52,178 bases of DNA from a virus (lineage: Duplodnaviria; Caudoviricetes): IMG/VR virus record IMGVR_UViG_3300031688_000025, positions 1 through 52,178 of that record, one strand, 5' to 3'. The notes below the pieces were generated by a model that saw nothing but the letters and a program-made list of their open reading frames with translations, made no database searches and was not told the origin of the DNA. This document shows, piece by piece, positions 10,404-41,228 of the stretch; positions within the stretch are counted from its first letter, which is position 1, and each line of letters starts with the position of its first letter. The translations under genes and the position numbers were made by a program.

Positions 10404-12041
10404 CTACAGCCAACTAGTATGATCCTCCTCATACTGTTGATTTTGAAAGCCTACCCTGTTGGAGACCAATCGATCTCTATGGGTTCTTAGGACTTCAAAG
10501 GCTATAGCTGTTGCAATTACAGTATCATCATGTCCACCTGTAATAGCGTTGGTACGACCATTCGCATCAGCCACGTAACTCAAACACTCTTGAATAATCC
10601 GAGGGGACGCAAGATTGATATCATCATTCTCAATTGCGTTCTTAAGATGCGCCACGATCATGGGTTTAGTAGCTTGCGTTGTACGCCAACCAAGTCGGCT
10701 GCCTTCCTCATTAGACACGTTAGCTACTTTGGTTTGATGGTATAGGTTCACATAGTTCATCTGCTTGAGACGATTAAGTGTAGCTATGCCTAAGGAATTA
10801 GATTCAACAGCCAGTAAGGCATTGTTGTAATATCTTCCAAGATAGAATAGTAAGTCACCATATCTGGTAGGATCTACTCTATTATTTCTATATAAAGCTA
10901 CAACTTCATTCTTTGTATTCATAACTGCACAGGCTGAGTAGTCTTGGCCCACGCCTAATGCACAGTCAGCACCTATTACAAAGTTATCATCAAACTTAGG
11001 ATACTGGAATATTTCAATGTCCCCATCTTTAAAGTCCTCAAAGGAAGAAGATACATAATTAAATGTCTGAGTCTTCATAACTTGTGAGGGTATTAGGGAT
11101 TGTAACTTTTCAATATTAAACACATTAGCACCAGAAGTTTGAAATGCTTCTTCTGCTGTCAATGGGTATTCTTGTCGGAACTTACTAAGGCCTCCTTCAG
11201 CTACCTTTAACCTTCTCCAGTAAAGTTGTTCTAAGTCAAGACCATGCCTCTCTTGTATCTTATCTTCTTCACTTGATAGGGTTTCTTTGAAAGCTTCGGG
11301 CTCTAAGACTGTTCGTCTGTATTCCGGCATCAAGTACCATGGCACAAAAATAGGAAGGTAATCATTCTCACCTTCTACTGCACCTTTCCATAACCTATGG
11401 AATTCGTTACCAACACCATTAGCGGTGGACTCAAGTATTACTTCCGTTCCATTCGCTTCTGAAATACCCTGAAAGAGACCAGCTAGGATCTTCTCATCAT
11501 GAGTCCAAAAGGCTACCTCTGAGAGGTGAGCAATGGTTGGAGTAGTACCTCGACCAGCTTCAGGGGATCCTGCGGTATAGAGCCTGTAGCCTGATTCATT
11601 ATGATCAAACAGGATCTCTTTAGCATTGGACTTCTTAAAGACTGGTCTAAACTCATCAGGCATGTTAGCAATAGTATTACGTGACATGTTGAAGAGGGCA
11701 TCAGATGTGGCTGAGTCATGTGCCATAACAACTGATTTATTGTGAGCATTGAAGTAAGACTTCCAGAACACCCTGCCAGTAGCATAGGTAGATAAGCCCA
11801 TCTGTCGGCCCTTAAGGATTATAGCCCTAACACGGCCTGTTTCCTCTAGCTGCTTACGAATCTTATCGTCTACTATTCTTTGGGCCTCATTGAACTCAAA
11901 GGGTACAAACCCTAAAGAAGAATCCTTAGTCAAAATCTTTATCTGTTCTTTAGAGAATAGCTGAAAGTCCTTCTCGTATTCTGTTAGCTTTATACGTCTC
12001 TTAGATTCTTTAACTAACGCAAGCTTTCTCATGTTATTCAT
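10404..12041 (-). CDS. terL: Terminase large subunit
   Basis: Walker A ILKGRQMGLST, Walker B HLSEVAFW, coupling motif LESTANG, nuclease GAD...G.GQDYS, ESN, HDD.VIA. Confidence 0.95.
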   Translation of the reverse strand: MNNMRKLALVKESKRRIKLTEYEKDFQLFSKEQIKILTKDSSLGFVPFEFNEAQRIVDDKIRKQLEETGRVRAIILKGRQMGLSTYATGRVFWKSYFNAHNKSVVMAHDSATSDALFNMSRNTIANMPDEFRPVFKKSNAKEILFDHNESGYRLYTAGSPEAGRGTTPTIAHLSEVAFWTHDEKILAGLFQGISEANGTEVILESTANGVGNEFHRLWKGAVEGENDYLPIFVPWYLMPEYRRTVLEPEAFKETLSSEEDKIQERHGLDLEQLYWRRLKVAEGGLSKFRQEYPLTAEEAFQTSGANVFNIEKLQSLIPSQVMKTQTFNYVSSSFEDFKDGDIEIFQYPKFDDNFVIGADCALGVGQDYSACAVMNTKNEVVALYRNNRVDPTRYGDLLFYLGRYYNNALLAVESNSLGIATLNRLKQMNYVNLYHQTKVANVSNEEGSRLGWRTTQATKPMIVAHLKNAIENDDINLASPRIIQECLSYVADANGRTNAITGGHDDTVIATAIAFEVLRTHRDRLVSNRVGFQNQQYEEDHTSWL

Positions 12042-12334
12042 TGTAGTCCTCCCAGACCTTAAAGTTTACCAGAGAGAGAAGAACCATAGGAATATATCCT
12101 ATAGCTTTACCTCTAAGGTTCCTAGCCGTGTCGAGAATGCCCTATAGCCCCTTAAGGGGAGGGGGGTATCTATTCTCTACACTAGATATCTATATTCTCT
12201 ATAAGATCCCATAGGGCCCTTATAGGCTTAGGGCCCCCTCCGTACCCTAAGCTATAGTGTATCTGTGAGTGTCTTCGGGACACTACTCCAAGCATACTGT
12301 CGGGTAAGCTCTGATCTTCCTACGTATTCTCTCT

Positions 12335-12381
12335 CTCTATAAGGTACTATAATGGTTTCCCTCTATAAGGTACTATAATGG
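12335..12381 (-). promoter_or_regulatory. Tandem putative phage-RNAP late promoters (2 x 21 bp)
   Basis: CTCTATAAGGTACTATAATGG at 12335-12355 and 12361-12381. Minus strand reads ATTATAGTACCTTATA-GAG, pointing into terL. A 16-bp identical copy lies at 20843. Confidence 0.65.
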
Positions 12382-12499
12382 AGCTTAAGGGTTAATGGGA
12401 CTTAAAGGGTCTTTAGGGAGTGTATAGAATAACCCTGTGATATACGGTACCCTAATATAGCTTTGTACCCCCCTGATAGGTTCCTGCACTGTTCCTGTA

Positions 12500-12518
12500 G
12501 AGCCCTTCGGTCTCCTTG
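12500..12518 (+). promoter_or_regulatory. Putative virion-RNAP hairpin promoter 1
   Basis: GAGCCC-TTC-GGTCTC-CTTG (one stem mismatch); template strand has a C-GAA-G triloop. Confidence 0.55.
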
Positions 12519-12702
12519 TAGTATATCATAGAGATCCCTAGAGATCCCGAAGATATCTGCTAGTAACGGAGGACATGGGGAGTCCCTAGGGTAACATAGC
12601 CCTTAAGACCCTATAGACCCCGTAAGACCCTTTCAGTACCTGTGGATACCCTGCAGGTACACCTGTTTAATAGAGTCCCTTAGGGGGCATGGAGTGTGTG
12701 TA

Positions 12703-12981
12703 ATGTACGAAGTTCTTTCTGACCCTTGGGGTCTTGGTTTGTTTGTGTCAGTCATTGGGCTCCTTGGTAGCGTTGCTATCTTTGGTATCCTTGAGGCTGT
12801 TAGTGTTTGGTGCCGTCTCAAGAAACGTGGGGCTACACCAATCCGAATGATTCTGGATATGGAGCATTCTCGTGCAGTGTTTAAGTATAGACGTGCCCTG
12901 ATAATGTCATGGGTGTTTATGTCTATGTCTGTACTGTTTATTGTATCATTAGCTATGTCTATAGTAAGTGGTACTCTATAA
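12703..12981 (+). CDS. Early membrane protein with two predicted TM helices
   Basis: Two long hydrophobic segments; GGAG upstream of the ATG at 12703; sits between two hairpin motifs. Confidence 0.55.
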   Translation: MYEVLSDPWGLGLFVSVIGLLGSVAIFGILEAVSVWCRLKKRGATPIRMILDMEHSRAVFKYRRALIMSWVFMSMSVLFIVSLAMSIVSGTL

Positions 12982-12987
12982 ATCTAA

Positions 12988-13006
12988 GAGCCCTTCGGGC
13001 TCCTTG
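12988..13006 (+). promoter_or_regulatory. Putative virion-RNAP hairpin promoter 2
   Basis: Perfect GAGCCC-TTC-GGGCTC followed by CTTG; no U-tract. Confidence 0.65.
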
Positions 13007-13062
13007 AAGTGTCCTAAAGGGCATATACCTAGTGTAATTATAACCAAGTGGAGTAATATAGT

Positions 13063-13548
13063 ATGAAAGATTCGATTAAAATTCGAAGTGTAGTTGTACC
13101 TAACATCACGATTTCTGCGTGTAAGTTGCGCAGATCGTACAATGGTAAGTTTGGTCTACAGTACGGAGCCCACCTAACTGGTGACGGTCTAGCTGAGATA
13201 GGACTAAAGCAAGCTAACGATGGCGGGTACTGGTACTCTACCAATGCCAAGTATGGCAATATGGATGTCGATGTGCCACCTGTATCTATTCAAGATGCTG
13301 CTGGTAACGACATCGAAGATGATCTGGAGAATGGAGCTAAAGCTCACCTTCTCTTCGAGCTGCGTGACTACCCAGCAGGTGTCCGTAAAGATGGTACCAA
13401 GTTTGTTGCTGGTACCAATGCTCGTATCTCCGCTGTTCGTGCTCTGAGCTTCGATGTTAAGAAGTCTAAACAAGACGCACTAACTGCTGCTCTATTAGAG
13501 ATGGACATAGAGATGGAGTCAGTAGCACCAAATGGTGCAGTCTTCTAG
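13063..13548 (+). CDS. Early T7 gp2.5-like ssDNA-binding protein paralog
   Basis: Aligns by eye with 20122-20589 (FG.LQ, PV...D....I....NG.K........Y); acidic segment and terminal Phe; GGAG RBS. Confidence 0.6.
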   Translation: MKDSIKIRSVVVPNITISACKLRRSYNGKFGLQYGAHLTGDGLAEIGLKQANDGGYWYSTNAKYGNMDVDVPPVSIQDAAGNDIEDDLENGAKAHLLFELRDYPAGVRKDGTKFVAGTNARISAVRALSFDVKKSKQDALTAALLEMDIEMESVAPNGAVF

Positions 13549-13558
13549 CTTTCCCCCT

Positions 13559-13604
13559 GTAGGTGTATCGTTCTCTTAACTGAGTTCGGTGCACCTGCTT
13601 TTTT
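13559..13604 (+). terminator. Intrinsic terminator
   Basis: GTAGGTGTATCG...CGGTGCACCTGC stem followed by TTTTTT. Confidence 0.8.
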
Positions 13605-13610
13605 GTTGTA

Positions 13611-13629
13611 ACCGACAACACTACATGCA
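13611..13629 (+). promoter_or_regulatory. ACCGACA-Nx-TACATGCA motif, copy 1
   Basis: One of four copies, all just downstream of terminators. Confidence 0.55.
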
Positions 13630-13648
13630 AATTCCCACAGTTTCCTTG

Positions 13649-13689
13649 GGGACGCGGGGCTGACGCTAAGCAGCCTCGCTTCCTTTTTT
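13649..13689 (+). terminator. Intrinsic terminator
   Basis: GCGGGGCTG-loop-CAGCCTCGC followed by TTCCTTTTTT. Confidence 0.75.
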
Positions 13690-13695
13690 CTTACA

Positions 13696-13713
13696 ACCGA
13701 CACACTACATGCA
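13696..13713 (+). promoter_or_regulatory. ACCGACA-Nx-TACATGCA motif, copy 2
   Basis: ACCGACACACTACATGCA directly before the amidoligase operon. Confidence 0.55.
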
Positions 13714-13719
13714 AAAGCA

Positions 13720-14001
13720 ATGAGGTATCACATGCCAAAAGATTATGTCAGAGGCAAACCAATATTCATAGTGAACAAGACAACCCATAGTAGATTAGTA
13801 CCAGACGCTGAGTACACCGTCAATCAACTATCAATGATAACAGGGCTAACAAAACCTCAGGTGTTCAGCAGATGTAGGAAGAAAAGTACCATAGAGGACT
13901 CAGACCTATCAGCTAAGGTACGTAAGTACACACGCCCTTGGCCTGCTCTCCATAAAGACGAAGTGTTCTCTGCTTCTTACCTGTGCAAACCTATCATATA
14001 A
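13720..14001 (+). CDS. Small basic protein, possible HTH DNA-binding
   Basis: YTVNQLSMITGLTKPQVFSR resembles a helix-turn-helix; the real start may be MPKDY at 13732. Confidence 0.5.
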   Translation: MRYHMPKDYVRGKPIFIVNKTTHSRLVPDAEYTVNQLSMITGLTKPQVFSRCRKKSTIEDSDLSAKVRKYTRPWPALHKDEVFSASYLCKPII

Positions 14002-14018
14002 AACCAAGAGGAATTGTA

Positions 14019-14942
14019 ATGGCAGTTTCATTCGAAGTAACGTTAAGTAATATGACTGTACTTAAGTATGTGTCAAGAGCATGCTTCGCTCCAGTCAACC
14101 ATGTATTATCTAATGATCAGATGAGTAGGCACAATAGAGTTAACGCTATCAAGTACCTACCTTTCTTTCAAAGGTACTACTCTAACGAAGACTGTATGAA
14201 CCTTGAAGGCTACAAGATGACAAAAGAAATGTCATGGGAGTTAGCTACTAAGTGGTGGGATTATCTAATGACCCTACCTTTTATAACCGAGAGTATAAAG
14301 GATGACATACCCAGCACAACAGAGGGGTACAAGTCTGGTCTAAAGGTTACAACCGAGATGCCAGCCGACAGGATGATGCTCACGTTGTTCCTCCTTAGAG
14401 CCCCGCAGTACCAGCCTAACATCGTAAGGGTGTGGGATAGGGTGATGAAACAACATGACACTAACCCTGACACAGCACTAGTAACATCCTTCGCTATCAA
14501 TAGCCAACAAGCTAGTGATATAATAGACACCGAAAGCTTTAACCCTGAATGCTCACCTTTAGATTCAATATCCCCTTTGTATTCTTGTGAGAACACTATC
14601 GTATACCCTCAGTACTTTAGCATAATCGGTGCTAAGATAATGCTTAATAGATTACTGTGCGATGACTACGATAAAGAACTCTTCGGTGGTACACAAGATT
14701 ACTTCAGAGATAAGAGTCACTACAATCGGTACGCTACTACAGATCCCAAAGCTTTAGGTAGGTTCTTCTGTAAGAAACCCGCTTCATCATACCGGACAGG
14801 TAACCTTCAAGCCCGTGTAGCTAAGGATATACTAGGGCTAGAAGATGTAAGCAAGCATAGTAACCTAGACTATAGAAGACGACATGATCTGGCAATGGAC
14901 AAGGAACAAATAGCCCAACTCATAAAGTTAATTGAATCCTAA
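14019..14942 (+). CDS. Hypothetical protein
   Basis: Long ORF; GAGGA RBS precedes MAVSFEV. Confidence 0.7.
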   Translation: MAVSFEVTLSNMTVLKYVSRACFAPVNHVLSNDQMSRHNRVNAIKYLPFFQRYYSNEDCMNLEGYKMTKEMSWELATKWWDYLMTLPFITESIKDDIPSTTEGYKSGLKVTTEMPADRMMLTLFLLRAPQYQPNIVRVWDRVMKQHDTNPDTALVTSFAINSQQASDIIDTESFNPECSPLDSISPLYSCENTIVYPQYFSIIGAKIMLNRLLCDDYDKELFGGTQDYFRDKSHYNRYATTDPKALGRFFCKKPASSYRTGNLQARVAKDILGLEDVSKHSNLDYRRRHDLAMDKEQIAQLIKLIES

Positions 14943-14952
14943 GGGAGTTAAC

Positions 14953-19660: not shown

Positions 19661-19661
19661 T

Positions 19662-20060: not shown

Positions 20061-20121
20061 AGCAATAGCAACCTAAGTCAAGAGAATTCAAACTATTTAA
20101 TTCTACATAAGGTAATAAAAT

Positions 20122-20589: not shown

Positions 20590-20657
20590 GTACTAATAGT
20601 TTATGCCTCATGTCTTAAACTAAGTACCCAAACTGGGATAAGATTATCAAGGACTAT

Positions 20658-20726: not shown

Positions 20727-20746
20727 AACGCCATAGATTAGAGCCT

Positions 20747-21344: not shown

Positions 21345-21352
21345 ATTGCAAC

Positions 21353-22093: not shown

Positions 22094-22255
22094 ATGTCCG
22101 GCAAGGGTTCAAGGCCACGGCCTATGAAAGAAAAAGAAGCGTACTCTAAATCATGGGATGCTATCTTCGGTAAGAAAGACAAACCTGAGGAAGCAGTAGA
22201 GCCCTTCGGGCTCCTAAAAGGTGAGGATAAAGATGCAGAAGATAAAGATAATTAA
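22094..22255 (+). CDS. Small phage protein (53 aa)
   Basis: Not in the ORF track; AGGAG RBS; MSGKGSRPRP...WDAIFGKK. Confidence 0.55.
   Translation: MSGKGSRPRPMKEKEAYSKSWDAIFGKKDKPEEAVEPFGLLKGEDKDAEDKDN
22199..22213 (+). promoter_or_regulatory. Third copy of the GAGCCC-TTC-GGGCTC hairpin
   Basis: Identical 15-mer to 12988-13002; lies inside a small ORF ahead of endo VII/RNR. Confidence 0.45.
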
Positions 22256-29426: not shown

Positions 29427-31523
29427 ATGGCTAACGCTATACATGCTGTAGCTCAGTACATAAGGAGCAATAGAGAAGGTGCCCGAGGTAGGAATCACTC
29501 GGGTATCGAACTCTTAAACAGGCATATGGATTACGGTATAGAATACGAAGAGCTTGTTATATGTGCAGTACAGGCAGCTCAAAGCTTATTCCTTAGATCC
29601 CGTAACGCTAGTAGTAGAAGCTTCAAGTTAACAGCAACATCAACATCAATAGGTTTATCTGTGGTCTCTAGGATAGGGATCAGGAACAGTACCTATACAG
29701 AGTTATTCTCAGTTGGTGATCTGTTTGTCGAAGCCTTACTACAACTTAAGTACCTTGAGATAGAAAGAGAGTACGAAGGTTACCGAGCACCGTATGTAAT
29801 ATTCTTAACAGAAAAGTGGGAAGACTTAGGTGAGATACCTCCAGAGTTTGATAAGGCTACACTGAGTGGTACTAGCTTTAAGAAATTCCCTAAGATAATT
29901 GGGTTAAGAAACCCGATAACCAAGAGGCCGTATATCAAACGTATGACCTCGGAGAGGGACTTTAACCAGTGCCTTGACCAACCCTTTGTGAAAGCTCTAG
30001 ACAAGCTGCAATCGTCTGCTTGGCACCTTAACGTAGACCTTGTTAAAGCTCTCAGAGATAACGTCACTAAGTTCTTAGATATGAAAGATAAGACAGACAA
30101 AGGTAGGTCTAAAAGAATAGAGATGAAGTTTATCTTAAACAAAGCAAGGGCTATAGGAGACGAAACTTTCTACCAAGCGGTAGAGTGTGACTACAGGGGG
30201 CGAGTGTACTACACTGAACCGTTCTTAAACTACCAAGGTTCTGACTTAGCCAAAGGTCTCTTTCAGTTTGGCGTAAGTAAACCTATGGATGACAAAGGAT
30301 TCTTTTGGTTATGTGTACACACTGCATGTTCTTACAACCAGTCGTATACGATAGAGGACTTAGATAAACAATCATGGTTAACAGAAGACTACAGGCATCA
30401 CTTAGCAGAAGAAGGGTTGGATACTATTTCAGTAGACAAAATGACGTTAAGGGACAGAGCACATTGGACAGTACACCACCAGAAGGAACTGATAAACGAT
30501 GCAACCTTGATGAACTTCAGGATGGAAGCGGAGAAACCAGTATCACTCCTAGCTTGCTGTCTTGATCTTAAAGGTTATGTAGAATCTGAAGGGGTATACG
30601 AGTCTTGTCTGCCTATACCTGTAGACGGAAGTAACAATGGATGGCAACACCTAGCTGCTATGTCTAAAGACAGTCAAGCAGGGGCGTTAGTCTCCATAGT
30701 ACCTCAGCTAATACAAAAAGATTTCTATGTAGAAGTAGCTAAGCGATTGATAGTTAGAATGCCTGAGTGGTTTGAGGGTAGGTCTATGCCAATGAAAGCA
30801 ATACGTAAAGGGATAGCCAAGCGTGGGTCTATGACTAGAGCTTACTCTGCAGGTCAACGTAAGATAGCAGAGAATATGTTCTATGATTGTAAGACTGAGG
30901 GATACAATAAGAAGTACAAGATAAGCAAAGATGACTGCGACAAGCTGTCTAAGAATCTAATTCTTGCTATCAATGATACTTGTGTTGGGCCCTTAAAGAC
31001 CATGAAGTTCTTACAAAAGATAACTGACTACTCACTAGAGAGTGGACAGACTTGTCTATCGTGGACTACACCATCAGGATTCCCTGTGTTGTATGAAGTA
31101 TGGAAGCAAAAGAACCTGACACTAAGGGGTACTATCAGGGGCTTAGGGCAGATAGGTCATAGCATCAAGGTGCCTGTGCTTACCAGAGAAAGTAAGCCTA
31201 TACCATGCCGTAGGTCTTTTGCATCTGGATGTTCACCTAACTTTGTACACTCAATGGATGCAGCACACATGGCTAAGGTAATCGAGTCATTCCCCGGAAG
31301 CTTTGGGGCAGTACATGATTCCTTCTCTACCCATGCGTGTGACGTTGAGAGGTTACTTGAGCATACTAAGTGGCAGTTTGCTATGATGTATAATGTAAGT
31401 AACTTCTTTAATCGCATAGAGTCTATGATCCTTGAGGATCGTACAGGTTACTGTGTTAAACAACCAGATATAGGTGATCTAAAAATAGAAGAAGTCATAA
31501 GCTCTGACTATTTCTTTTCTTAA
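29427..31523 (+). CDS. Single-subunit T7-like RNA polymerase (short, 698 aa)
   Basis: DYRGRVY, PVDGSNNGWQH, AKRGSMTRAY, WTTPSG, PNFVHSMDAAH, VHDSF. Confidence 0.95.
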   Translation: MANAIHAVAQYIRSNREGARGRNHSGIELLNRHMDYGIEYEELVICAVQAAQSLFLRSRNASSRSFKLTATSTSIGLSVVSRIGIRNSTYTELFSVGDLFVEALLQLKYLEIEREYEGYRAPYVIFLTEKWEDLGEIPPEFDKATLSGTSFKKFPKIIGLRNPITKRPYIKRMTSERDFNQCLDQPFVKALDKLQSSAWHLNVDLVKALRDNVTKFLDMKDKTDKGRSKRIEMKFILNKARAIGDETFYQAVECDYRGRVYYTEPFLNYQGSDLAKGLFQFGVSKPMDDKGFFWLCVHTACSYNQSYTIEDLDKQSWLTEDYRHHLAEEGLDTISVDKMTLRDRAHWTVHHQKELINDATLMNFRMEAEKPVSLLACCLDLKGYVESEGVYESCLPIPVDGSNNGWQHLAAMSKDSQAGALVSIVPQLIQKDFYVEVAKRLIVRMPEWFEGRSMPMKAIRKGIAKRGSMTRAYSAGQRKIAENMFYDCKTEGYNKKYKISKDDCDKLSKNLILAINDTCVGPLKTMKFLQKITDYSLESGQTCLSWTTPSGFPVLYEVWKQKNLTLRGTIRGLGQIGHSIKVPVLTRESKPIPCRRSFASGCSPNFVHSMDAAHMAKVIESFPGSFGAVHDSFSTHACDVERLLEHTKWQFAMMYNVSNFFNRIESMILEDRTGYCVKQPDIGDLKIEEVISSDYFFS

Positions 31524-32360: not shown

Positions 32361-32425
32361 AAAAGGGCCCCAATTAAGGGGCCCAAAGTACTACTATATG
32401 GGGGCCCTAACGGGCTCCCTTTTTT
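32359..32425. terminator. Back-to-back terminators of the two converging arms
   Basis: AAAAAA-GGGCCCC-AATTAA-GGGGCCC (minus strand) and GGGGGCCC-TAAC-GGGCTCCC-TTTTTT (plus strand). Confidence 0.85.
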
Positions 32426-35400
32426 ATTGTAATGTTGTTTTAAACTTAGGATCATCCATAGCAAACTGATAGATACCTCTTGCCTTACCTTCTCCGCTAG
32501 CTGCGGAAACGTACTGGTAGTGTGCATCTTTCATATGCTTAGCTACTCCTCTTCTCCTTTCAGCAGAATCTCTATCAAGCCTTGCAAGATCCTTTACAAC
32601 TGAACCAAACTTCCACTTCATTAAGAAAGACATAGACTCTGATAAGGTAGCATAGTTTCTGTAAGGGTTAGGTGTCTCTATCTCAAGACCTTTGTACTGA
32701 TGTGGCTTTAACCTAGCAGCTAAACGTTCAGCTTCTTCCTTAAGTGGCCCGTCAACATCTAAGTAATTAAGTTGATTCCTAACAAACTCAACAGTATTGT
32801 TGTGTTCATCTTCCATTATCAACTCTTTACCTGCCTGTTCCCCTCGTCTTTTAAACTCCTTAAAGCCATGGTGGATGTTACCTGTAACTACATCCTTGAT
32901 ATCCTTAAGAACAGCAGAGTTATTAGTTTGATCAAACCAATCATCATTTAACATCTGTTCTACAATATCACCTTGACTTAAGTCTGTAACAACAGCGTCA
33001 TAAATAGGAGATAGCCAAGGCATATTATCACCTTGCGTAAGCTTAGTCCAGTTCTTACCAGATGCCAACATAATCATGTTCATTGCATCAAAAGACTGAG
33101 CAAGTGTAGCTAAGGAAGATCCCCTTGCTTTACCGCCTAAGATACCACCCTGTGCAGCATAAGGGGTTAGCTGTGGGTTAGCAGAAGTAGTTTGAATCCT
33201 TTGATCAACTGACTTAAGCTGTTTCCTTAGTGCATCAGCTCTGACTAAGTTACCTTCAGCTTCAGCTCTTGAAATACTATCTTGTATTCCTTTGTTTACC
33301 TTACGGTTACCTGCTATAGTTTTACTGTCAAGCCTCTTACCATTTTCAAATGGAGTTATCATACCCCTCTTGAAACTCTCAGTGTCGTATACTTTCTCCA
33401 TACCACCTAACGTAGTCTTACCGCCACTTGGGCTTGGGAAAGTAACCATTCTGTTAAACATAGTAGACGCATCAACAGAATCCTTAAGCAAAGCAGCAAA
33501 CTCTACAAGCTCAGGCCCTAAGGTAGCTTCAACTGCAACACCTCTTATATCGTTTAGTAACATAGCAGCGTTGTTAAGTCCACCGGGGAATGACTCAGCC
33601 GCTTGCTTAAGAGTAGGATCACTAAGTAAAGTATCCCAGACAGAACCTATTAAGTTATCCATCTCTTGACCATAAGCAAAGGTCATTAAAGGTTTCTTAA
33701 GGAAGTCTGCCTTGTTCTTTAAAGACAACTGAAAGAGTTCTCTTACATTATCTAACATAGTTTCGTCATAGCTGTACTTATCCATGAACGCTTTGTCAGT
33801 AAGCATGTAACCGCTGAACTCACTGTCAAGTAAAGTCTCTAAGTTATTACTGAGGGTCTTTCTTATATCACCTTCGTAAGCTTCAAAGCCTTCTATGTCA
33901 GAATAAGCTCCAAGTATCTTACTAGCATTCTCAGCACGGAACAAACCAACCCGATACAACTTCTCTTTAAGACCTAGTATGCTGAACATAGTAGCTAATC
34001 CATTAGAGATGCCATCGATTTCCATATAGTTAACAGCAGATCTAAAAGACTTACCTGCTTTCATAGCTGCATCATAGTTAGCTATATCAATAACAGCATC
34101 TATCATTTGTATAGCATGCTTGTGTGCTTTCTTGTTATTAGCCAAACCTTGTATGAAGTCTGCAACCTCAGGGTCAGAAGATAAAGCTGCTGGTACTCTA
34201 GTAGGTAGCTTGTCTACACCTGAAACACCATTACTGTTTACCATAATCTGAGACAAAGCTAATCGTGCTGGCTTGTCATCGTAAGCCTGAAGGGCCTCGT
34301 TGATCTTTTTGCCAATCCTAACTAGTCTCTTATGGGCCTCAGATTGTGTACGTATGTTACCCGCAGCTTGCTCTATAGCATCAGCCCTTACAAGACCACC
34401 TCCGTCATAGAACAAAGCAGACATAGTAGCCAACCAGTTACTCTCTTCTCTGCTACGGCTGTTAGGAATGACCTCGATCATCTTACCACTGCCAATAATA
34501 TTACGAACAAGATGGTTGTTAACTGGTGATAGCGAAGAGTGTGGTGTTAACCTTTGAGTAACTCTTTGTTTAAAGTATGTAAAGTAAAAAGGTTTATTGT
34601 CATACACAGATAAGCTCGTAAGAACCTCAAGGGCTTTGTTAGCATGCATGTAATACTGTTGCTGTTGGAACTCTGGAGTTCTAAACTTAGCTTCTTGCAA
34701 CTTAGATATCTCTATATCTTGCTGTAGTTTCTCTATTAAAAACACAGTACGATAATAAGCAGGACTAGAAGGTTCAACAAGCAGAGCTTTATCTAGCTTA
34801 GCCTGAAGTACAAGACCCCTAGCATTTTCATTTTCTGCTATCTTTGCAATAGAAGCTTTCCTTTCATCACCTATGTCAAACATATCAAGCAAAGGGTTAC
34901 CATTAGCACCCATAGCAGCCTGACCCATAGCAGCAGAGCCTAACAAGATTGCAATCTTAGATCGTCTAGGTTCAAAGTAATTAGGCACTTGACTGTAACT
35001 AAACATAGCATCATCGGCGCTAATAGACTTAGGGTTAGGTACAGATCCTGTGCTAGACTTAGTATAAGCAGATCCCTCATACATAGGTTGACCTGTAGCA
35101 GGGGGAGATAGAAGTGGCTTCATCCTTGGATTAAAAGGTTTATACTTCCTAACATCTCTTGAGAGTACCTGAAATCCTAGCTTAGTCAAAGACAAAGTAG
35201 GTGGTAAAATATTACCAGCTTCATCAATACCGCCCGGAGAATGAGTAACTATATCCGGGAAACTCATTTGATAATCAGCAAGAAAAATCTTACCAATCAT
35301 TTCAAAAGCCTCAGGTGTTAAGTTCTGGTAATCAGCTACGTAAGAATCTGTTTCCAAACCTTCCATCTCAGACTTAGCTCTACGAAAATCCTTAAAGATA

Positions 35401-36410
35401 GCCTCACCCACACCTCTAACCGATGTGTCAAACTTAGAGTCTCCGGCTTGATAACCTTGCAACTCATCTATGTCTGCTTGAGCAGCAGAACTTAGAGGTG
35501 AACCATCGTCATTGTTAGCTTGAGACATGCTTAGAAGCCAAGGCTCTATCACTGCCATTTGTATTAGGTCAAACCGTGGGTCTACTTTAGCTGTCCTTGC
35601 GTAAGATATTTCCTCAAAGTCTGCCTCTCCGTCTGCATAAGCCTGAGCTGTGTCACGTTCGAACTTAGCATCTAGCTTACCAACCCCAAGGATCTTAGGG
35701 TGCATCACTAAGTTAGACATGCTTAACTTTAAATCAGGATTGTCCTTGAAAACATTAGGGGCTACATCATCCTGAGTCTGCATCTGTTCGATAGCCTCAG
35801 CAGTAACTTCCTCATCAGGGTTAAGCTTAAGGGTATCCTTAATGCTTAGACCAATAACATCCCTGTCCTGAGAGTCCCTTGTTTTAAACCTAACTCTTTC
35901 TGTAAGCTCATGCCCTAAGACATTTGCTGCATTAGAGAAGCTAGTGGCGATACCCATTCTTTCTAATGGGCCGGGGACTCTTTCCTGTTCCCGTTGTTGA
36001 ACCTCAAGGGGTGTCTCAGCTTGATCAACAAAGACATTGCTGCCTTCCTCAACCACAGAGCCAACACCCTGAGAGCCTACGTCAGCTTGCGCAGGTAGTA
36101 CAGTGGCTTCTGCCAGACCTAAGTCTGAAACAGGAGTCTCTAGTTGAGACCCCTCAGCAACCATATCAGTTTCATCTATGATACCAAGTTGTATCAAGTC
36201 TTCTCGGGTATACTCACCTTCGCCTTGTACTCCTTGAGGCCCTTCCAATGGGCCGAACTGTTCCTCTATTCCTTGAAGAGCCTCGTTACCACCTTGAGCT
36301 TGTTGAGAAAGCTCTTCCTGTAACCTGAGAAGCGACTCTTGTTTACTTGCTTCTGTTTCAGCAGCCGTAGGTTGAGCACCTATCACTGCGTTAGCTGACG
36401 TAATCGCCAT
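32424..36410 (-). CDS. Putative virion-encapsidated single-subunit RNA polymerase (N4 vRNAP-like)
   Basis: Collinear motifs QRVTQRL..SPVNNHLVR, EIDGISNG (D799), KKPLMTFAYG (K905/Y913), FPSPSG, QSFDA, IYDA (D1138); no Cys; last gene of the ejection module. Confidence 0.8.
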   Translation of the reverse strand: MAITSANAVIGAQPTAAETEASKQESLLRLQEELSQQAQGGNEALQGIEEQFGPLEGPQGVQGEGEYTREDLIQLGIIDETDMVAEGSQLETPVSDLGLAEATVLPAQADVGSQGVGSVVEEGSNVFVDQAETPLEVQQREQERVPGPLERMGIATSFSNAANVLGHELTERVRFKTRDSQDRDVIGLSIKDTLKLNPDEEVTAEAIEQMQTQDDVAPNVFKDNPDLKLSMSNLVMHPKILGVGKLDAKFERDTAQAYADGEADFEEISYARTAKVDPRFDLIQMAVIEPWLLSMSQANNDDGSPLSSAAQADIDELQGYQAGDSKFDTSVRGVGEAIFKDFRRAKSEMEGLETDSYVADYQNLTPEAFEMIGKIFLADYQMSFPDIVTHSPGGIDEAGNILPPTLSLTKLGFQVLSRDVRKYKPFNPRMKPLLSPPATGQPMYEGSAYTKSSTGSVPNPKSISADDAMFSYSQVPNYFEPRRSKIAILLGSAAMGQAAMGANGNPLLDMFDIGDERKASIAKIAENENARGLVLQAKLDKALLVEPSSPAYYRTVFLIEKLQQDIEISKLQEAKFRTPEFQQQQYYMHANKALEVLTSLSVYDNKPFYFTYFKQRVTQRLTPHSSLSPVNNHLVRNIIGSGKMIEVIPNSRSREESNWLATMSALFYDGGGLVRADAIEQAAGNIRTQSEAHKRLVRIGKKINEALQAYDDKPARLALSQIMVNSNGVSGVDKLPTRVPAALSSDPEVADFIQGLANNKKAHKHAIQMIDAVIDIANYDAAMKAGKSFRSAVNYMEIDGISNGLATMFSILGLKEKLYRVGLFRAENASKILGAYSDIEGFEAYEGDIRKTLSNNLETLLDSEFSGYMLTDKAFMDKYSYDETMLDNVRELFQLSLKNKADFLKKPLMTFAYGQEMDNLIGSVWDTLLSDPTLKQAAESFPGGLNNAAMLLNDIRGVAVEATLGPELVEFAALLKDSVDASTMFNRMVTFPSPSGGKTTLGGMEKVYDTESFKRGMITPFENGKRLDSKTIAGNRKVNKGIQDSISRAEAEGNLVRADALRKQLKSVDQRIQTTSANPQLTPYAAQGGILGGKARGSSLATLAQSFDAMNMIMLASGKNWTKLTQGDNMPWLSPIYDAVVTDLSQGDIVEQMLNDDWFDQTNNSAVLKDIKDVVTGNIHHGFKEFKRRGEQAGKELIMEDEHNNTVEFVRNQLNYLDVDGPLKEEAERLAARLKPHQYKGLEIETPNPYRNYATLSESMSFLMKWKFGSVVKDLARLDRDSAERRRGVAKHMKDAHYQYVSAASGEGKARGIYQFAMDDPKFKTTLQ

Positions 36411-36413: not shown

Positions 36414-39400
36414 TTATTCTCCTGTTATCCAACCATTATCTACAGCGGTATCATACATCCGATGCTTTAAGAAAGAGAAGGGTGTTAACCCAGCACCAGA
36501 TTTAAGTGCCTTTCTTGCGTCATCTTCTAAGATACCCTGTCCAAAGCCGTGTACGTTTTTAACTATATTAGATGCAGGGGCTTCTCCTGACATAAGGTTC
36601 CACATAGAACCAAGTGCACTATCACTTCTGTTTTCATAGAGAGGGAACATTAGATCACTGCTAATGATTCTTTCAGTGGTGCCCAACAGACCTGTAGAAT
36701 ACAGGGCTCTTAGGTATTTCTCTTCATCACTTAAGTAAGGTGATCCTTCTCCAAACTTAATAAGGTCTTTCAAATGTTGTGAAGCATAGCCTAACATAAG
36801 CATAGTCATGATCGATGCAAAGGCAGAGTACTTCATTCCGGGGGTAGCGTTCTTAACTGTATCCCACAAAGCTGGTATATGGTTAGCAGTAAACTGGGAT
36901 ATGAAACCCTGAAACTGAGTAAACAAAGCTAGATGTGGATTACTGTAGAACAAAGGTCTTCCCATAGCTGTAGGCATAGGCACTGAGGCGTTGACATAGC
37001 TTATAAAACCATTGTCAAACTGTCTCTCATACTCAACCTGTAGCTCAGCTTGTTGTTGTTTAAAGAAGGCTAGCTCCCTTGGCCCTAAAGATTCTATGTC
37101 AACCTGTTTATTTTCTAACAGTCTACTAGAAAGATTAAGCATCTTATCCACAGGGATACCCATGTACTCTAACATCTTACGAGCTTCCGCTGCTTCGTTA
37201 GTAATTGTACCTTGGCTATTGTGAAGTATATCTAAGTTCTCAATTAAAAAGTCGTTGTACATAGACGCACGTATACTTCTTGTTAAGTTAGTTATACCTT
37301 GGAGACCAATGATCTTAAAGAAGGAGTCCATTATAGCCTGAGTCATCTGATTAGTTTCAGATACACCAACTAGAACAGCAGCACCAGTCTTCTGAGATAA
37401 GAATCCACCACGACTTAAGTTACCTCTAGGATCATCTAAGCCTACGAATCGTGGGTCAGAAGCTTGTCTATCGCTGCGAGACTTAATCTGAGTATCAAAG
37501 TTACTACGTGTAGGGGCTACTCCTGTAATCCTACCTACTTCTGCAAAGTACTCAAACATTTCTCTACCTAACAGTAGACCAAAAGACCCTACGTTCTTAT
37601 GTAGGTTCTGTAGTGAACTTCCTTTTACTGTAAGTGCCAACTCTACGGTAGAAGAGATAGCAGCTAACGGTAACATAGTTAGTACACCAGTCAGTGTTAA
37701 GAACTTCTGGGCACCACGAACAGCATCGCTTTGGATACGCTTGTAGTTACCAGAGTCAGCATTGATAAGATCACCCAGTGCAAGGGTAAGGTCTTCTACT
37801 GTTTCACGAGCGTTAAGCTCAGCAGGTGTGCCAACCTCAGCGTCCCCTCGGATCTCATTGTATACATCATTAAGCATAGATGTAACTAGCATATTGTTCT
37901 TACCAAGAAACTTAGTAGTAGTCATATACCTAGCAGAGGACTTCATAGAGTACTCAAGATTATTAAAGATATCTTGCTCTAAGAACTTGTCAAAGGCAGG
38001 GGTATCTGAAATGTCTAACGATCTTCTCTTATGGCCCTTAGGGTACAAACCACCACGAGTTAAATCGAATGCCTCATCTAAAGTATTTATCTCTGGATTA
38101 TCAATGATAGCATCAGTTATAGAAACAGCATCATCCCTGTCCATGCCCTTATGTCTTACAAGCAAGTTAACAAACTCATCCTTGTTCTTAGCTATGACTT
38201 CCTTTAGGAACCCTTTGCTTCTGAAGATGTGATCCTGAAGAGCACCAAGTATGTTAGGGTTGCCTGCTTGCTTTTGTCTACCAACTATATCAGTGTACAT
38301 AGTGTTATCCACAGTGTACAACTCACTGATTAACATCTTAAGAGAGTCAGCGTTTTCAGTGAAGTTAGGGTTAGATAAATTATCCCAATCAATAGCAGCA
38401 ATAACTTGATCGCCAGTCATCCACTCTTCGTTAGTACGTTTAGATCCGTCCTTGTTAACCCTAGTTATCGGGGCAATGTGTTCTAAGTAAAAAGAGTTAA
38501 CTAAAGCTGATACTGCTGTCTTCCGTGCACCATATCTGCTAGCCTTAACCTTAAAGGATGCAAGGACTTCTTGCATAGGCCTTAGCTTATTCTCAAAGTT
38601 AATGTAGTTAATTACTTTATCATTATGAAAGTCAACACCACCATGTGTCTTGTTCTTTCTACCACCAAACATATCGTATATAACACGAGCAGTCTTGCTT
38701 TGGTTAAGTAATTCAGTGCTCATTCTAGTATCTAGTGCTGTACGTAACAGAACCATAGGGCTAGTCAGTGCATCCTTTAGGGATTCACGGATAGTCTTAG
38801 CATCTTTACGTCCTTGAGCAGACTCTGTCCTACGTTGACCAGCATCAGGGTCATCTCTTAGTTTTTGAGCTCTAGCCTTTGCTCTAGCTTTATTAGGTGC
38901 ACTTGCACCCTCGTCTACATTACCATTAGCAGAGTCCCAAGCATTCTGCATGACCTCATCTAAGTCAGGAACTTCGTCTACGTTATTCTTACTCTTGTTC
39001 TCTGCTCTAGCTTCAGCTTTGTAACCTACAGTAGCGTCATCAAACCTACCATCGTAGTCAGACTTAGAGATACCAGCGTCATACCATTGACCTGCTTTAA
39101 AAACAGTAGTAGGTACAGAGAAAGCGCCACCTAAGGTACCACCAGCAACTAAAGCACTGGCTAATCGGCTCTCTAACTCTTCGTAATCCCAAGTTTTCTC
39201 AGAACCAATGACAGAAGCAGTGTACTGAGTAAGTTCCTGCAGCATCTCAGTGCTTCCTTCAAAGGCTGCACCAGCGGTAAGTCTCTTTGTAAGCTCTTTT
39301 AGTATGTGACCCTTAGCATATTGCTTAGATGCAAACTCTCCAGCATCTTTAGCATAACTAGCTAGCTCTCGTTTAGTTAAACGTGTCAATACTTCTTCAG

Positions 39401-41228
39401 CTTGATCCTTACTTAAGCCTACAGTAGCCGCATTACCTGCCTCTTTGCCTAAAGTAGCAGCAGCTCGTGCTAGTGGAGCACCAGTAGCGTTCATAAGGGC
39501 ATCAATAGCTACCTTCTTAGACTCACCAGTTAAGAAATGCTGGCTGTTAAAGCCCCCTAAAGCTCCTCTAAGGCCTAAACGATCCAGAGAGGCTGCGATA
39601 GCACCACCAACTACAGCTACGCCATAGCTCTTATCCTGTATGTTACCGGGCATCTCATCAAGTATAAGACCAGAGTACATAGCAACAGGAATAGTAAGGC
39701 TAGCCCCGAAAGTTAAAGGTGCAGTAACCATAGAAGCCATAGTGACTCCCATAAAGGGTATAGACATCACAAGGTTAGACCCTATGAACTCGCCTACTTC
39801 ACCAATAGAGCCCCAGTTTACATCCTTATAGTCTAAGCGTACCTTAGCCTGACCTTCCATCTCAGTTTTACTCTGCTCTACTTGACCAGTAAGCCACGCT
39901 CTAGTGTCTGTAGCTCCAACTACATCTGCCATTGCAGCACCAACCATCTTAAAAGAGTTACCTACCATAGTCAGGGATGAATCCCAAGTGTCAGACAGTG
40001 GTGTTTTAGATCGGTTGTCTAGTGTTGCGTTGGTGTTTCTAATTAAAACATCAGAGAATATCTCAGGAAATGCTGAGTACTCTTGCTCGTTAAGAGCCTG
40101 TAGTTTTGCAATAGGTACACCATTAGTAGGGGACAAGCCTGCTACTTTAATTAGTTCAGCAGCAAACTCGTAGTCTGTCTTAGGTACAGTGTCTTTCCTT
40201 AGGGCCCTTAGGCCATCACCGTACAACGACCTTGAGTAGCTATCGTCACTAAGGGTTTCCCGTGAGTTACCTATGAAGGTAGGCCTAGCGATACCACCAG
40301 AGATTAGGAAGTCTGTGAAAGACCTACCGTCCTCGTCTACTAGATCACCAATAGCTCGACCGTATCTATCTTTTTCCTTAGATGCTTTTACAGTAGTGTA
40401 TCCATACTTGTTAGCAAGAGCAGACACCATGTCTTTGCTTACTTGCCCAGCACCCTCACCGACTACGTAACCTTTCTCTTTAAGAACCTTAGAGGTTTCA
40501 GCTAAGTCAATGTCCCGTAGTCTTACACGATCTCCAGTTGCAGAGTCCTTAATGGTATCTCCATCAATGAAAGACCATCCTGAGTTTCCGATACTATAAT
40601 CGAATGTTTCGGTTGTAGCCTCAGGTACTACTTCCGTCTTTGATGGGTCAGTCAAGAAACTTTGACCGGCGTAAGAGCCAACAGCGTTAGCTACTCTCTT
40701 CATTCTTTTGTGTACACCTGTTCCTTCTTTTATAGACTTTTCGTAGTCATCATTACGCAGAAACTCTTGAGAAGCTTCCTCGTAATTACCTTCGTTCATA
40801 AAGCCTACAAACTTAGGGGAAGTACCAAGGTCACCTCTGTACTCAGCTTGAATGATCTCAGCCTTAAGGTCTTCTGGTAAATTATCTAGTGTTGGTATAC
40901 GATTACGTGCCCTCTCAACGTGATGTTGGAATGCAGCATCAAAACCTTTATCTATCCACTCACCTGTTTGACCTACGCCTTGAGTTGTCACACCCTTAGT
41001 ATCAAGGTAGGGGGCAGCTCGGTACCCTTCCTCTGCAACTACTCTTTGCTCAGCGTAAGTTAAAGGTCTTCCAAGGTTCTCGGAGACTTTAGTTATTGCA
41101 TCTGCTCCGTGGTAGACATCCTTGTCCACCGTGTTACTTTGTGGGAGAGTAGGGTCGGTATCAGGTTCATTTAAGAGACCCAGAGCACTCAACTCTTCTT
41201 CTGTATATTCAATTTTATTGTCGCTCAT
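36414..41228 (-). CDS. Large internal virion/ejection protein with N-terminal lysozyme and thermonuclease-like domains
   Basis: EEGYRAAPYLDTKGVTT (E-x8-D-x5-T); IDGDT..RVRLRDID..E..DRYGR; Gly/Ala hydrophobic segments; no Cys. Confidence 0.8.
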   Translation of the reverse strand: MSDNKIEYTEEELSALGLLNEPDTDPTLPQSNTVDKDVYHGADAITKVSENLGRPLTYAEQRVVAEEGYRAAPYLDTKGVTTQGVGQTGEWIDKGFDAAFQHHVERARNRIPTLDNLPEDLKAEIIQAEYRGDLGTSPKFVGFMNEGNYEEASQEFLRNDDYEKSIKEGTGVHKRMKRVANAVGSYAGQSFLTDPSKTEVVPEATTETFDYSIGNSGWSFIDGDTIKDSATGDRVRLRDIDLAETSKVLKEKGYVVGEGAGQVSKDMVSALANKYGYTTVKASKEKDRYGRAIGDLVDEDGRSFTDFLISGGIARPTFIGNSRETLSDDSYSRSLYGDGLRALRKDTVPKTDYEFAAELIKVAGLSPTNGVPIAKLQALNEQEYSAFPEIFSDVLIRNTNATLDNRSKTPLSDTWDSSLTMVGNSFKMVGAAMADVVGATDTRAWLTGQVEQSKTEMEGQAKVRLDYKDVNWGSIGEVGEFIGSNLVMSIPFMGVTMASMVTAPLTFGASLTIPVAMYSGLILDEMPGNIQDKSYGVAVVGGAIAASLDRLGLRGALGGFNSQHFLTGESKKVAIDALMNATGAPLARAAATLGKEAGNAATVGLSKDQAEEVLTRLTKRELASYAKDAGEFASKQYAKGHILKELTKRLTAGAAFEGSTEMLQELTQYTASVIGSEKTWDYEELESRLASALVAGGTLGGAFSVPTTVFKAGQWYDAGISKSDYDGRFDDATVGYKAEARAENKSKNNVDEVPDLDEVMQNAWDSANGNVDEGASAPNKARAKARAQKLRDDPDAGQRRTESAQGRKDAKTIRESLKDALTSPMVLLRTALDTRMSTELLNQSKTARVIYDMFGGRKNKTHGGVDFHNDKVINYINFENKLRPMQEVLASFKVKASRYGARKTAVSALVNSFYLEHIAPITRVNKDGSKRTNEEWMTGDQVIAAIDWDNLSNPNFTENADSLKMLISELYTVDNTMYTDIVGRQKQAGNPNILGALQDHIFRSKGFLKEVIAKNKDEFVNLLVRHKGMDRDDAVSITDAIIDNPEINTLDEAFDLTRGGLYPKGHKRRSLDISDTPAFDKFLEQDIFNNLEYSMKSSARYMTTTKFLGKNNMLVTSMLNDVYNEIRGDAEVGTPAELNARETVEDLTLALGDLINADSGNYKRIQSDAVRGAQKFLTLTGVLTMLPLAAISSTVELALTVKGSSLQNLHKNVGSFGLLLGREMFEYFAEVGRITGVAPTRSNFDTQIKSRSDRQASDPRFVGLDDPRGNLSRGGFLSQKTGAAVLVGVSETNQMTQAIMDSFFKIIGLQGITNLTRSIRASMYNDFLIENLDILHNSQGTITNEAAEARKMLEYMGIPVDKMLNLSSRLLENKQVDIESLGPRELAFFKQQQAELQVEYERQFDNGFISYVNASVPMPTAMGRPLFYSNPHLALFTQFQGFISQFTANHIPALWDTVKNATPGMKYSAFASIMTMLMLGYASQHLKDLIKFGEGSPYLSDEEKYLRALYSTGLLGTTERIISSDLMFPLYENRSDSALGSMWNLMSGEAPASNIVKNVHGFGQGILEDDARKALKSGAGLTPFSFLKHRMYDTAVDNGWITGE

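Follow-up and report, generated by a model that had tools for sequence, protein, structure and literature searches.

The 52,178-base pair (bp) IMG/VR virus record IMGVR_UViG_3300031688_000025 of an uncultivated marine phage (rated 92% complete; "the window" below means its whole length) carries three copies of a small G+C-rich hairpin, an element that is real, conserved and directional. The hairpins are probably promoters of a phage-encoded RNA polymerase (RNAP). Most of this estimate goes to an RNAP of 1328 amino acids (aa), whose gene closes the late gene block, and a minor part to a second, T7-like RNAP of 698 aa. The reading that we favour, at somewhat less than an even chance, is that the hairpins are template-strand promoters of the type known from phage N4 and that they are used by the 1328-aa enzyme, delivered into the cell together with the phage DNA; the packaging and injection of the enzyme, the extrusion of the hairpins, their binding by the polymerase and the positions of the start sites are elements of this reading that we infer.

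The window is organized in two convergent gene blocks, one on the - strand and one on the + strand; they part at 12041-12694 and come together at paired terminators at 32361-32425 (Table 1). An 18-nucleotide (nt) motif, AGAGCCCTTCGG(G/T)CTCCT, occurs at 12499, 12987 and 22198, always on the + strand. The first two copies lie within and beyond the stretch where the blocks diverge (terminase gene on one side, first + strand genes on the other), the third ahead of the replication block. An earlier note on this DNA had reported a 24-nt string at about 12499 and 12987; it was found exactly, at 12499-12522 and 12987-13010, the two copies being alike at 22 of 24 positions. Its folding of the template strand into GAGCCC-GAA-GGGCTC with one mismatch in the first copy was confirmed, and no T-run, hence no U-tract, follows either copy. 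The number of copies had been underestimated, as there is a third, perfect one at 22199-22213. On the template strand all three form a hairpin with a 6-bp G+C-rich stem and a 3-nt loop, which is GAA on the - strand and closed by a C-G pair in every copy; the single mismatch, in copy 1, is C.T on the + strand and G.A on the template strand.

This recurrence is far above chance. With up to two mismatches allowed, the 15-mer had three matches against a mean of 0.06 in shuffled sequences, none of 100 shuffles reaching three, and the 18-mer was found three times forward and never in reverse, with no match for a control pattern read backward. Perfect hairpins with 6 bp, a 3-nt loop and at least five G-C pairs numbered two in the window (mean 0.20; two were reached in 4 of 200 shuffles). 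A covariance model built from the alignment described below found three sites at 29.9-34.4 bits, the next best scoring 14.4 bits (E 0.08); these matches are partly by construction, since the model was built with copies 1 and 2 and a twin of copy 3 among its sequences.

Each copy stands before an open reading frame (ORF). Copy 1 is about 185 nt ahead of ORF 12694/12703-12981, copy 2 is located 6 nt past the stop of that ORF and 60 nt ahead of the ORF at 13063, and copy 3 lies 3 nt upstream of the ribosome binding site of the ORF starting with ATG at 22233, the first gene of the nucleotide/replication block. The claim that the first two copies precede ORFs is thus borne out by position; that the genes downstream of them are early genes, as was also claimed, is a presumption. 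Copy 3 sits within the 3' end of a 53-aa ORF (22094-22255), which reads straight through it (…EPFGLLKG…). In one relative (G003) the equivalent ORF seems to stop just ahead of the hairpin. Taken together, these two observations indicate that hairpin 3 is kept as a nucleic-acid element and not for coding.

Relatives were gathered through the terminase, the 161-aa ORF after copy 2, the 179-aa ORF after copy 3 and the 1328-aa polymerase, and they included three fuller genomes, G001-G003 (the window itself is G000). G002 and G003 carry the same three copies as the window, in corresponding places. In G001 these places are taken by three hairpins whose stems differ, GGCTCC (one mismatch), CCAGCC and AAGGCC, each self-complementary. 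The presence of three different self-complementary stems in one genome ruled out a duplex operator for a dimeric regulator. In the window as in each of G001, G002 and G003, the covariance model found exactly three sites, all of them on the early-gene strand, the matches in the three relatives again being partly by construction. The ungapped alignment behind the model comprises 27 rows (25 distinct, with 13 distinct cores) chosen by a hairpin scan at syntenic places. In it 96.7% of 150 stem cells are paired, compared with 14-59% when the partner was slid as a control, and compensatory changes on both sides occur at five of the six stem pairs. Doubly changed cells number 31, against 7.2 ± 2.0 in shuffles, a value reached by none of 500. 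One-sided (wobble) changes are absent from the 150 cells, and where pairing fails, in five cells, the mismatch is always C.T on the + strand and hence G.A on the template strand. Because the rows were picked by a hairpin scan, pairing was partly selected for, and the count of hairpin presence is the fairer measure. Upstream of the terminase gene, the family hairpin was present in 14 of 32 loci (L007-L038), and one locus had a variant with a 4-nt loop; such variants were seen in L009 and L128.

The loops and flanks are not symmetrical between the strands. On the template strand the loop is GAA in 18 of the 27 rows, GTA and GGA in three each, AAA in two and AGA in one, so that G-N-A accounts for 24/27; the closing pair is C-G in all 27, and the centre base is a purine in 24, with T in the GTA loops. 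On the + strand the loop is T-rich in every row. The flank is kept on one side only, with a purine at centre+13 in 27/27 and a G at centre+14 in 23/27. The strand bias together with the one-sided purine and G supports a directional, transcription-like reading. Taking into account that there is no wobble, that the mismatches are C.T or G.A, that stronger, G.U-containing U-tract terminators exist elsewhere in the window and that the template loops are G-N-A, the hairpin pattern leans toward DNA-like rather than RNA-like. Mini-hairpins of the d(GCGNAGC) type are extraordinarily stable, a property for which the energy model used here gives no bonus. N4-type promoters depend on supercoiling to extrude the hairpin and on a single-stranded DNA-binding protein (SSB) that leaves the template hairpin intact; for the window, the perfect, wobble-free palindromes and the energies of G.A versus C.T mismatches give indirect hints of such extrusion. 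In DNA folding, copy 1 had -2.7 kcal/mol on the template strand and -1.6 kcal/mol on the non-template strand. As far as the available text of the d(GCGNAGC) work goes (PMC13037366), the stem top on the template strand, C-GAA-G, C-GTA-G or C-GGA-G in 24/27 rows, is of the same kind, with the difference that those molecules define a physical-chemistry class and not a biological function.

It is unlikely that the hairpins act in RNA instead, by stabilising or marking mRNA ends or by binding a phage protein, for example as a boxB-like antitermination or processing site. Such a role would agree with the location of every copy on the coding strand of its block, with copy 2 closely following a stop codon and copy 3 of G003 directly following 'taa', and with RNA folds of -10.4 kcal/mol for copy 2 and -10.1 kcal/mol for copy 3. 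RNA-library contigs running through copies 2 and 3 put these hairpins in RNA, unless they stem from DNA carry-over. The boxB hairpins of lambda-type nut sites are small, near-identical within a phage and different between phages, which is the pattern seen here. Against it speak the lack of wobble in 150 cells of which 31 are doubly changed, mismatches that would be C.U and not G.U, the missing U-tract and the much greater strength of the true terminators. Copy 1, moreover, has neither an upstream + strand gene nor a detectable promoter from which it could be transcribed, and its RNA fold (-3.9 kcal/mol) is no better than that of shuffles, 74 of 200 being as good. A UUC triloop is not known as a stable RNA loop; a C(UUCG)G RNA tetraloop was excluded by the register, and a scan of the window matched no Rfam family and no tRNA.

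Still less can the hairpins be expected to be intrinsic terminators or attenuators of + strand transcription, a function which we regard as very improbable. They are, it is true, G+C-rich stem-loops on the coding strand, and copy 2 is just past a stop codon. However, no T-run follows any of the three copies or the 27 aligned relatives, and the three hairpins are absent from the output of a terminator scan that lists U-tract terminators at 13654, 20749, 21322 and 32400. The true terminators have G.U pairs, U-tracts and folding energies of -17 to -24 kcal/mol, compared with about -10 kcal/mol for the hairpins. Copy 1 has nothing upstream to terminate. The RNA data used are assembled contigs of four metatranscriptome runs, from which starts, ends and strands cannot be read; of the words sampled from the window, 91% occur in one marine run (X1) and 6-18% in the other three. 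Contigs cross hairpin 2 (12933-15009 and 12886-13359, two studies) and hairpin 3 (17796-23852, one study), which argues against termination and does not show initiation. Low X1 cover at 12355-12932 was not taken as a finding.

Another function at the DNA level is improbable, more so than a role in RNA; the repeats could serve in replication or priming, in nicking or packaging, or as hot spots of recombination where modules join, or a structure-specific protein could bind them as a cruciform. Perfect wobble-free palindromes would fit cruciform DNA, and the copies stand at module borders, between terminase and early genes and between auxiliary and replication genes. The sequence past copy 1 diverges even between 98%-identical relatives, and the contigs of 18 of the 32 loci L007-L038 begin 244-1004 nt upstream of the terminase gene, which could reflect a genome terminus, a terminal repeat or assembly-breaking strain variation. 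On the other hand, the strict strand bias (27/27) and the one-sided purine and G at +13/+14 speak for a directional reading, as in transcription, three copies 0.5 and 9.2 kb apart, each before an ORF, make an atypical layout for an origin or pac site, and no link to a nuclease or resolvase was found.

If the hairpins are promoters, the conserved flank indicates where transcription may start. The earlier note had placed the loop centre at -11; the arithmetic is right, since counting 11 nt on from the centres at 12507 and 12995 leads to a G in both cases (12518 and 13006). This geometry is not kept in the family, however: G stands at centre+11 in only 6 of 27 rows, compared with the 23 that have it at centre+14. 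In the N4-like Pseudomonas phage LUZ7, according to the accessible part of an ONT-cappable-seq report (PMC9163698), transcription from early promoters begins with a G at 13-14 nt from the centre of a hairpin whose stem measures 4 bp or more and whose 3-nt loop is conserved. Combined with the frequency of G at centre+14, this makes 12521, 13009 and 22220 the likely starts, which we consider more likely than 12518 and 13006. For the middle promoters of LUZ7, the same source describes G+C-rich hairpins that combine a stem of 6 bp or more with a loop of 3-4 nt and precede a G start by about 15 bp. In geometry the window hairpins fit both descriptions, with 6 bp, a 3-nt loop (4 nt in two relatives) and the +14 G in 23/27, and differ in that the LUZ7 starts were measured whereas ours are predicted. 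LUZ7 is, besides, a 74-kb schitovirus with a giant virion RNAP and a two-subunit RNAPII, whereas the enzymes here are single polypeptides of 1328 and 698 aa.

The identification of the 1328-aa protein as an RNA polymerase, made in the earlier note, held: by its motifs and predicted structure it is a T7-family single-subunit RNAP with the right-hand fold. Sequence comparison gave little. There was a weak match to phrog_2206, virion RNA polymerase (E 8.7e-7 over 162 residues), no Pfam match, no tblastn match among 50,697 phage records, and no relevant match to PDB sequences either by phmmer or with a profile, so that a fold search was needed. One search for homologous proteins returned the query protein alone; the full search yielded 139 cluster representatives of the family, mostly of 1100-1350 aa. 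In 50 aligned members R492, D671-G672, K777/T782/Y785/G786 and D1010 (numbering of residues 129-1328) are invariant, and by comparison with T7 RNAP we take these to be the T/DxxGR motif, motif A (DG), motif B (K-x4-T-x2-YG) and motif C (D). The structural model (pLDDT 84.8, pTM 0.85) matched yeast mitochondrial RNAP, N4 mini-virion RNAP and T7 RNAP in Foldseek with E values of 3e-12 to 1e-11, and the polymerase fold covers model residues 2-1189 of 1200. VIA-align gave Z 23.3 to T7 RNAP (root-mean-square deviation 4.3, 546 aligned residues), Z 22.1 to the mitochondrial enzyme and Z 20.1 to N4 2po4 (deviation 5.8, 680 aligned). By fold, the enzyme is thus no nearer to N4 than to T7, and it is not an orthologue of N4 gp50.

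Packaging of this polymerase into the virion is suggested by the position of its gene at the end of the late block, beside that of a 1604-aa protein. The latter (Table 1) is likely an internal or ejected virion protein, and its domain content makes it a candidate for an ejected protein with predicted nuclease activity. Between the window, G001-G003 and four other contigs, the 1328-aa polymerase is 30-37% identical where terminase, DNA polymerase, primase-helicase, reductase and the 698-aa polymerase are 74-92% identical; judged by these sequence identities, it evolves far faster than its neighbours. Its tree disagrees with those of the neighbours, a sign that lineages may have exchanged the end of the late block.

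The assignment of the hairpins to the 1328-aa enzyme has to be weighed against the second polymerase. The earlier note had treated the hairpins as cis evidence for the 1328-aa protein independent of its motifs; this does not hold, because the 698-aa T7-like polymerase is also encoded and the middle enzyme of LUZ7 is likewise reported to use hairpins. Use of the hairpins by the 698-aa enzyme, as an analogue of the N4-type RNAPII, with other signals, for example the AACCGACAC...CTACATGCA motif, or another enzyme, such as host RNA polymerase, serving the early genes, appears unlikely, about as much so as a role in RNA. The LUZ7 middle-promoter geometry, as given in the accessible text (PMC9163698), matches, including the 4-nt loops of L009 and L128. 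The 698-aa polymerase is also the better conserved of the two (74-89% versus 30-37%), which would suit an 18-nt motif identical in G000, G002 and G003. On the other side, its gene is downstream of hairpin 3, and the first genes would have to await an enzyme not yet made. Host transcription of early genes is not favoured by the promoter scan, which found no sigma-70-like promoter in 12000-14000 (4.0 ± 2.0 in shuffles) and no excess in the + block (43 versus 44.1). In addition, a T7/SP6-like duplex motif ahead of the late genes of G000-G003 already fits the 698-aa enzyme. Presence or absence of the genes cannot separate the two polymerases, both being encoded in every fuller genome tested. The stem type, however, can be compared with both: the 698-aa protein of the window is 85-89% identical to those of genomes with other stems and 74-78% to those of stem-sharing genomes, whereas its 1328-aa protein is 35-37% identical to those of genomes with the GAGCCC stem and 30% to the others. 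The stem type of the window therefore follows the 1328-aa and not the 698-aa polymerase, a single case which favours the former.

The duplex motif is 21 nt long, ATTATAGTACCTTATAGAGGG / ATTA(T/A)AGTACCTTATAGAG(G/A)G, with a TATAG core, and it is kept ahead of the late (terminase) genes in G000-G003. We take its ATTATAGTACCTTATAGAG(G/A)G form to resemble T7/SP6 promoters. This motif, which precedes late genes, is of the kind of the T7, T3 and SP6 promoters; the hairpins share with those promoters a following purine-rich start region and differ in being defined by pairing, with 13 distinct cores and three stems within G001. RNA-library contigs stop at 12315-12327 (three studies) and at 12354 (a fourth), slightly inside the starts predicted from the duplex motif (12337 and 12363), which is a weak hint of its use. 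A further motif, AACCGACAC, followed by CTACATGCA in tandem pairs in the window, recurs in G001 (three copies) and G002 (one copy). The pairs could be a further promoter class; AACCGACAC also faintly resembles the nick consensus of phiKMV-like phages.

Several observations weigh against N4-type promoters of the 1328-aa polymerase. The template base at the position corresponding to N4 -8 is C in the window and G in N4. The DNA fold of copy 1 is weak, its -2.7 kcal/mol being equalled by 12 of 200 shuffles, and for copies 2 and 3 the energy model gives no strand difference (-5.9 versus -5.8 kcal/mol) with a parameter set that has no bonus for G-N-A loops. At the place of copy 3, a count restricted to the 33 loci whose identity reaches 62% (47 more, none above 52%, are excluded) gave 22 triloop hairpins and one with a 4-nt loop, nine loci without a clean hairpin and one too short; upstream of terminase, 14 of the 17 loci without a hairpin hold less than 1000 nt, and L020, L025 and L029 lack it in the full 1600 nt. 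The earlier note had named relatives with the polymerase gene and no hairpins as the finding that would contradict it. G001-G003 have both; 13 more distant genomes (G004, G005, G007, G009-G018) encode both polymerases, yet in none of them did the model score a site at E < 0.05, nor did any G+C-rich triloop hairpin recur, so that the interpretation in the earlier note is in part contradicted. The promoters of these genomes may differ. G006 and G008, with no polymerase match, are outside this set, and the lone hairpins AGAGGC-loop-GCCTCT (G009, G010, G015) and GTCCC-TTC-GGGAC (G012, G013) were not counted because of a T-rich run after them or a single occurrence. Further, G000, G002 and G003 share an unchanged 18-nt motif with 1328-aa polymerases that are only 35-37% identical. 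The reported use of G+C-rich hairpins by the T7-like middle polymerase of LUZ7 makes the 698-aa enzyme a serious rival, and the presence of two other promoter-like motif classes leaves the pairing of polymerases with signals ambiguous. None of the 32 RNA pieces listed (of 87), all assembled contigs, begins at a predicted start. Finally, the contig stops of the relatives are scattered, in a gap whose sequence diverges between strains, and mark no physical genome end.

In N4, three early promoters, P1-P3, are read by the virion RNA polymerase gp50, the loops being of the G-N-A class closed by C-G, and the specificity loop of the enzyme contacts G at template -8, according to the accessible part of one report (PMC4496689); the P2 oligonucleotide is GAAGC-GGA-GCTTC in the available text of another (PMC13492108). 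To the extent that these sources describe the system, the two have in common a small template-strand hairpin (stem 5-7 bp, G-N-A loop of 3 nt, closing pair C-G) that occurs three times before the first genes, a stem in which pairing is kept while the bases may change, a divergent T7-family polymerase among the late/virion genes and a second T7-like polymerase among the genes that follow. The N4 promoter geometry proposed in the earlier note stands, therefore, for the template C-GNA-G triloop and the strand-specific, conserved family ahead of gene blocks, and fails for the -11 spacing; the -8 base of N4 is not matched either. The N4 enzyme has about 3500 aa with large N- and C-terminal domains, whereas the enzyme here has 1328 aa without them; the phages here have about 52-56 kb and are not schitoviruses; the conserved G is at centre+14 and not at +11; the third hairpin precedes the replication genes, 9 kb into the genome; and packaging, dependence on SSB and gyrase and the start sites would here be predictions. 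The hairpins thus look like N4 early promoters, yet stand outside the N4 system, with a polymerase a third of the size, in an unrelated phage and with different -11/-8 details.

If the hairpins do serve the 1328-aa polymerase, the following course can be envisaged. The enzyme would be made late, packaged with the adjacent large proteins and delivered with the DNA. In the incoming DNA the inverted repeat would extrude, the template (-) strand forming the 6-bp C-GAA-G triloop hairpin, to which the delivered polymerase would bind and from which it would begin transcription at the three positions given above, about 14 nt beyond the centre of the loop. Transcription from hairpins 1 and 2 would cover the first two small genes and stop at the U-tract terminators near 13600 and 13690, and hairpin 3 would drive the approximately 10-kb nucleotide/replication block. 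The 698-aa gene is downstream of hairpin 3 with no strong terminator between them; as no strong + strand terminator follows hairpin 3 until 32400, the hairpin-3 unit would include this gene. The 698-aa polymerase would then read the duplex T7-like (TATAG) promoters ahead of the late genes.

With greater reservation still, it is possible that a miniature N4 programme operates in a widespread clade of marine podoviruses, about 52-56 kb in size and not related to schitoviruses, with a compact injected T7-family polymerase of 1.3 kaa that lacks the giant N4 flanking domains, extruded C-GNA-G hairpins for the first genes and the replication block, and a second T7-like polymerase for late duplex promoters. 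Were this true, injected single-subunit polymerases reading hairpins would be an old, widespread strategy and no peculiarity of the N4 family, and the approximately 140 clusters of the 1328-aa family would be a source of small polymerases with specificity for single-stranded hairpins. Use of hairpins by the 1328-aa enzyme in unrelated, abundant marine phages would make the strategy wider than thought. The minimal needs of packaging, ejection and hairpin recognition could be studied in a far smaller protein, the early genes of uncultivated phages would become predictable from sequence, and compact hairpin-promoter polymerases could be useful tools. In the literature covered, which leaves out most subscription journals, no such polymerase and no hairpin promoters were found described outside N4-like phages. 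If the second polymerase or a role in RNA were the explanation, the hairpins would still be a well-defined, conserved element of the clade, of less general interest.

Table 1. Positions of the hairpins, related signals and principal genes in the window
Feature	Position	Strand	Remarks
Large terminase	10404-12041	-	opens the - strand block, which wraps round the record ends
T7-like duplex promoter candidate, two copies	12333..12374	-	ATTATAGTACCTTATAGAG(G/A)G; toward terminase and late genes; diverging from hairpin 1, 125-150 nt away
Hairpin copy 1	12499..12522 (stem-loop 12500-12514)	+	GAGCCC-TTC-GGtCTC; template GAGaCC-GAA-GGGCTC; candidate start G 12521 (centre+14) or 12518 (centre+11)
+ strand block	12694 to 32360	+	small ORFs, amidoligase/ATP-grasp cluster, ribonucleotide reductase, DNA polymerase, primase-helicase, 698-aa T7-like RNAP
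ORF after hairpin 1	12694/12703-12981	+	95 aa from GTG, 92 aa from ATG at 12703; without family match
Hairpin copy 2	12987..13010 (stem-loop 12988-13002)	+	perfect GAGCCC-TTC-GGGCTC, 6 bp; candidate start G 13009 or 13006
161-aa ORF after hairpin 2	13063..13548	+	63-78% identity across relatives; acidic tail, invariant terminal Phe
Second terminator-like hairpin with T-run	~13560-13600	+	at the end of the hairpin-2 unit
AACCGACAC(N2-5)CTACATGCA tandem pairs	13606-13632, 13693-13718, 21350-21372, 21383-21405	+	after U-tract terminators, ahead of ORFs 13720 and 21438
Hairpin and U-tract terminator	13654..13689	+	closes the hairpin-2 unit; RNA fold -23.6 kcal/mol
Third copy of T7-like duplex motif	20843-20858	+	between a terminator and the ORF at 20879
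Hairpin copy 3	22198..22222 (stem-loop 22199-22213; 18-nt motif 22198-22215)	+	perfect; candidate start G 22220
698-aa T7-like RNAP	29427..31523	+	phrog_414, E 1.8e-102; 32% identity to CRP-7 RNAP
Convergent pair of hairpin and U-tract terminators	32361..32425		ends the + block and the - block
1328-aa T7-family single-subunit RNAP (predicted)	32424..36410	-	last gene of the late block
1604-aa protein	36414..41228	-	SNase-like domain (residues 234-324); C-terminal match to a virion structural protein family
Finish of - strand block	43579 down to 32424	-	proteins of 778, 1604 and 1328 aa

The product of the ORF after hairpin 1 looks hydrophobic by eye. The 161-aa ORF had no PHROG match and no Pfam match even at E 10; neighbouring clusters in the ESM Atlas carry phage families that bind single-stranded DNA, which makes such a protein a lead only, the structural model being poor (pLDDT 52.9). 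A separate 155-aa ORF at 20122-20589 (+) matches a Gp2.5-like family of single-stranded DNA-binding proteins (phrog_112, E 2e-9).

The nearest named phage is Roseobacter phage CRP-7, reached through the 698-aa RNAP only, and the region 12000-16000 had no nucleotide match in the phage record collection. The three large late proteins of CRP-7 did not match the profile of the 1328-aa polymerase family, and the accessible part of the CRP-7 paper (PMC6918029) is silent on any second polymerase. The 'direct terminal repeats' given by IMG/VR for G005, G008 and G012 may be assembly overlaps.

The gap between terminase and early genes (12100-12660) is dense in short repeats, CCCTATAG, CCCTTAAGG, GGGTCTTTAGGG and TAGAGATCCC, the last occurring twice in tandem, and contains an additional small hairpin, AGTGTC-TTCGG-GACACT, at 12267-12283. 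Genes at 14932-20060 (+), midway along the + block, match COOH-NH2 ligase, amidoligase, glutamine amidotransferase, RimK-like ATP-grasp (S6 glutaminyl transferase family) and gamma-glutamyl cyclotransferase, a run that looks like a peptide or metabolite modification cassette. Large late ORFs contain arrays of 21-nt and 15-nt periodic repeats at 2941-3912 (in the - strand ORF 1279-4050) and at 42577-42696, which probably encode repetitive fibre-like or Ala/Thr/Ser-rich segments.

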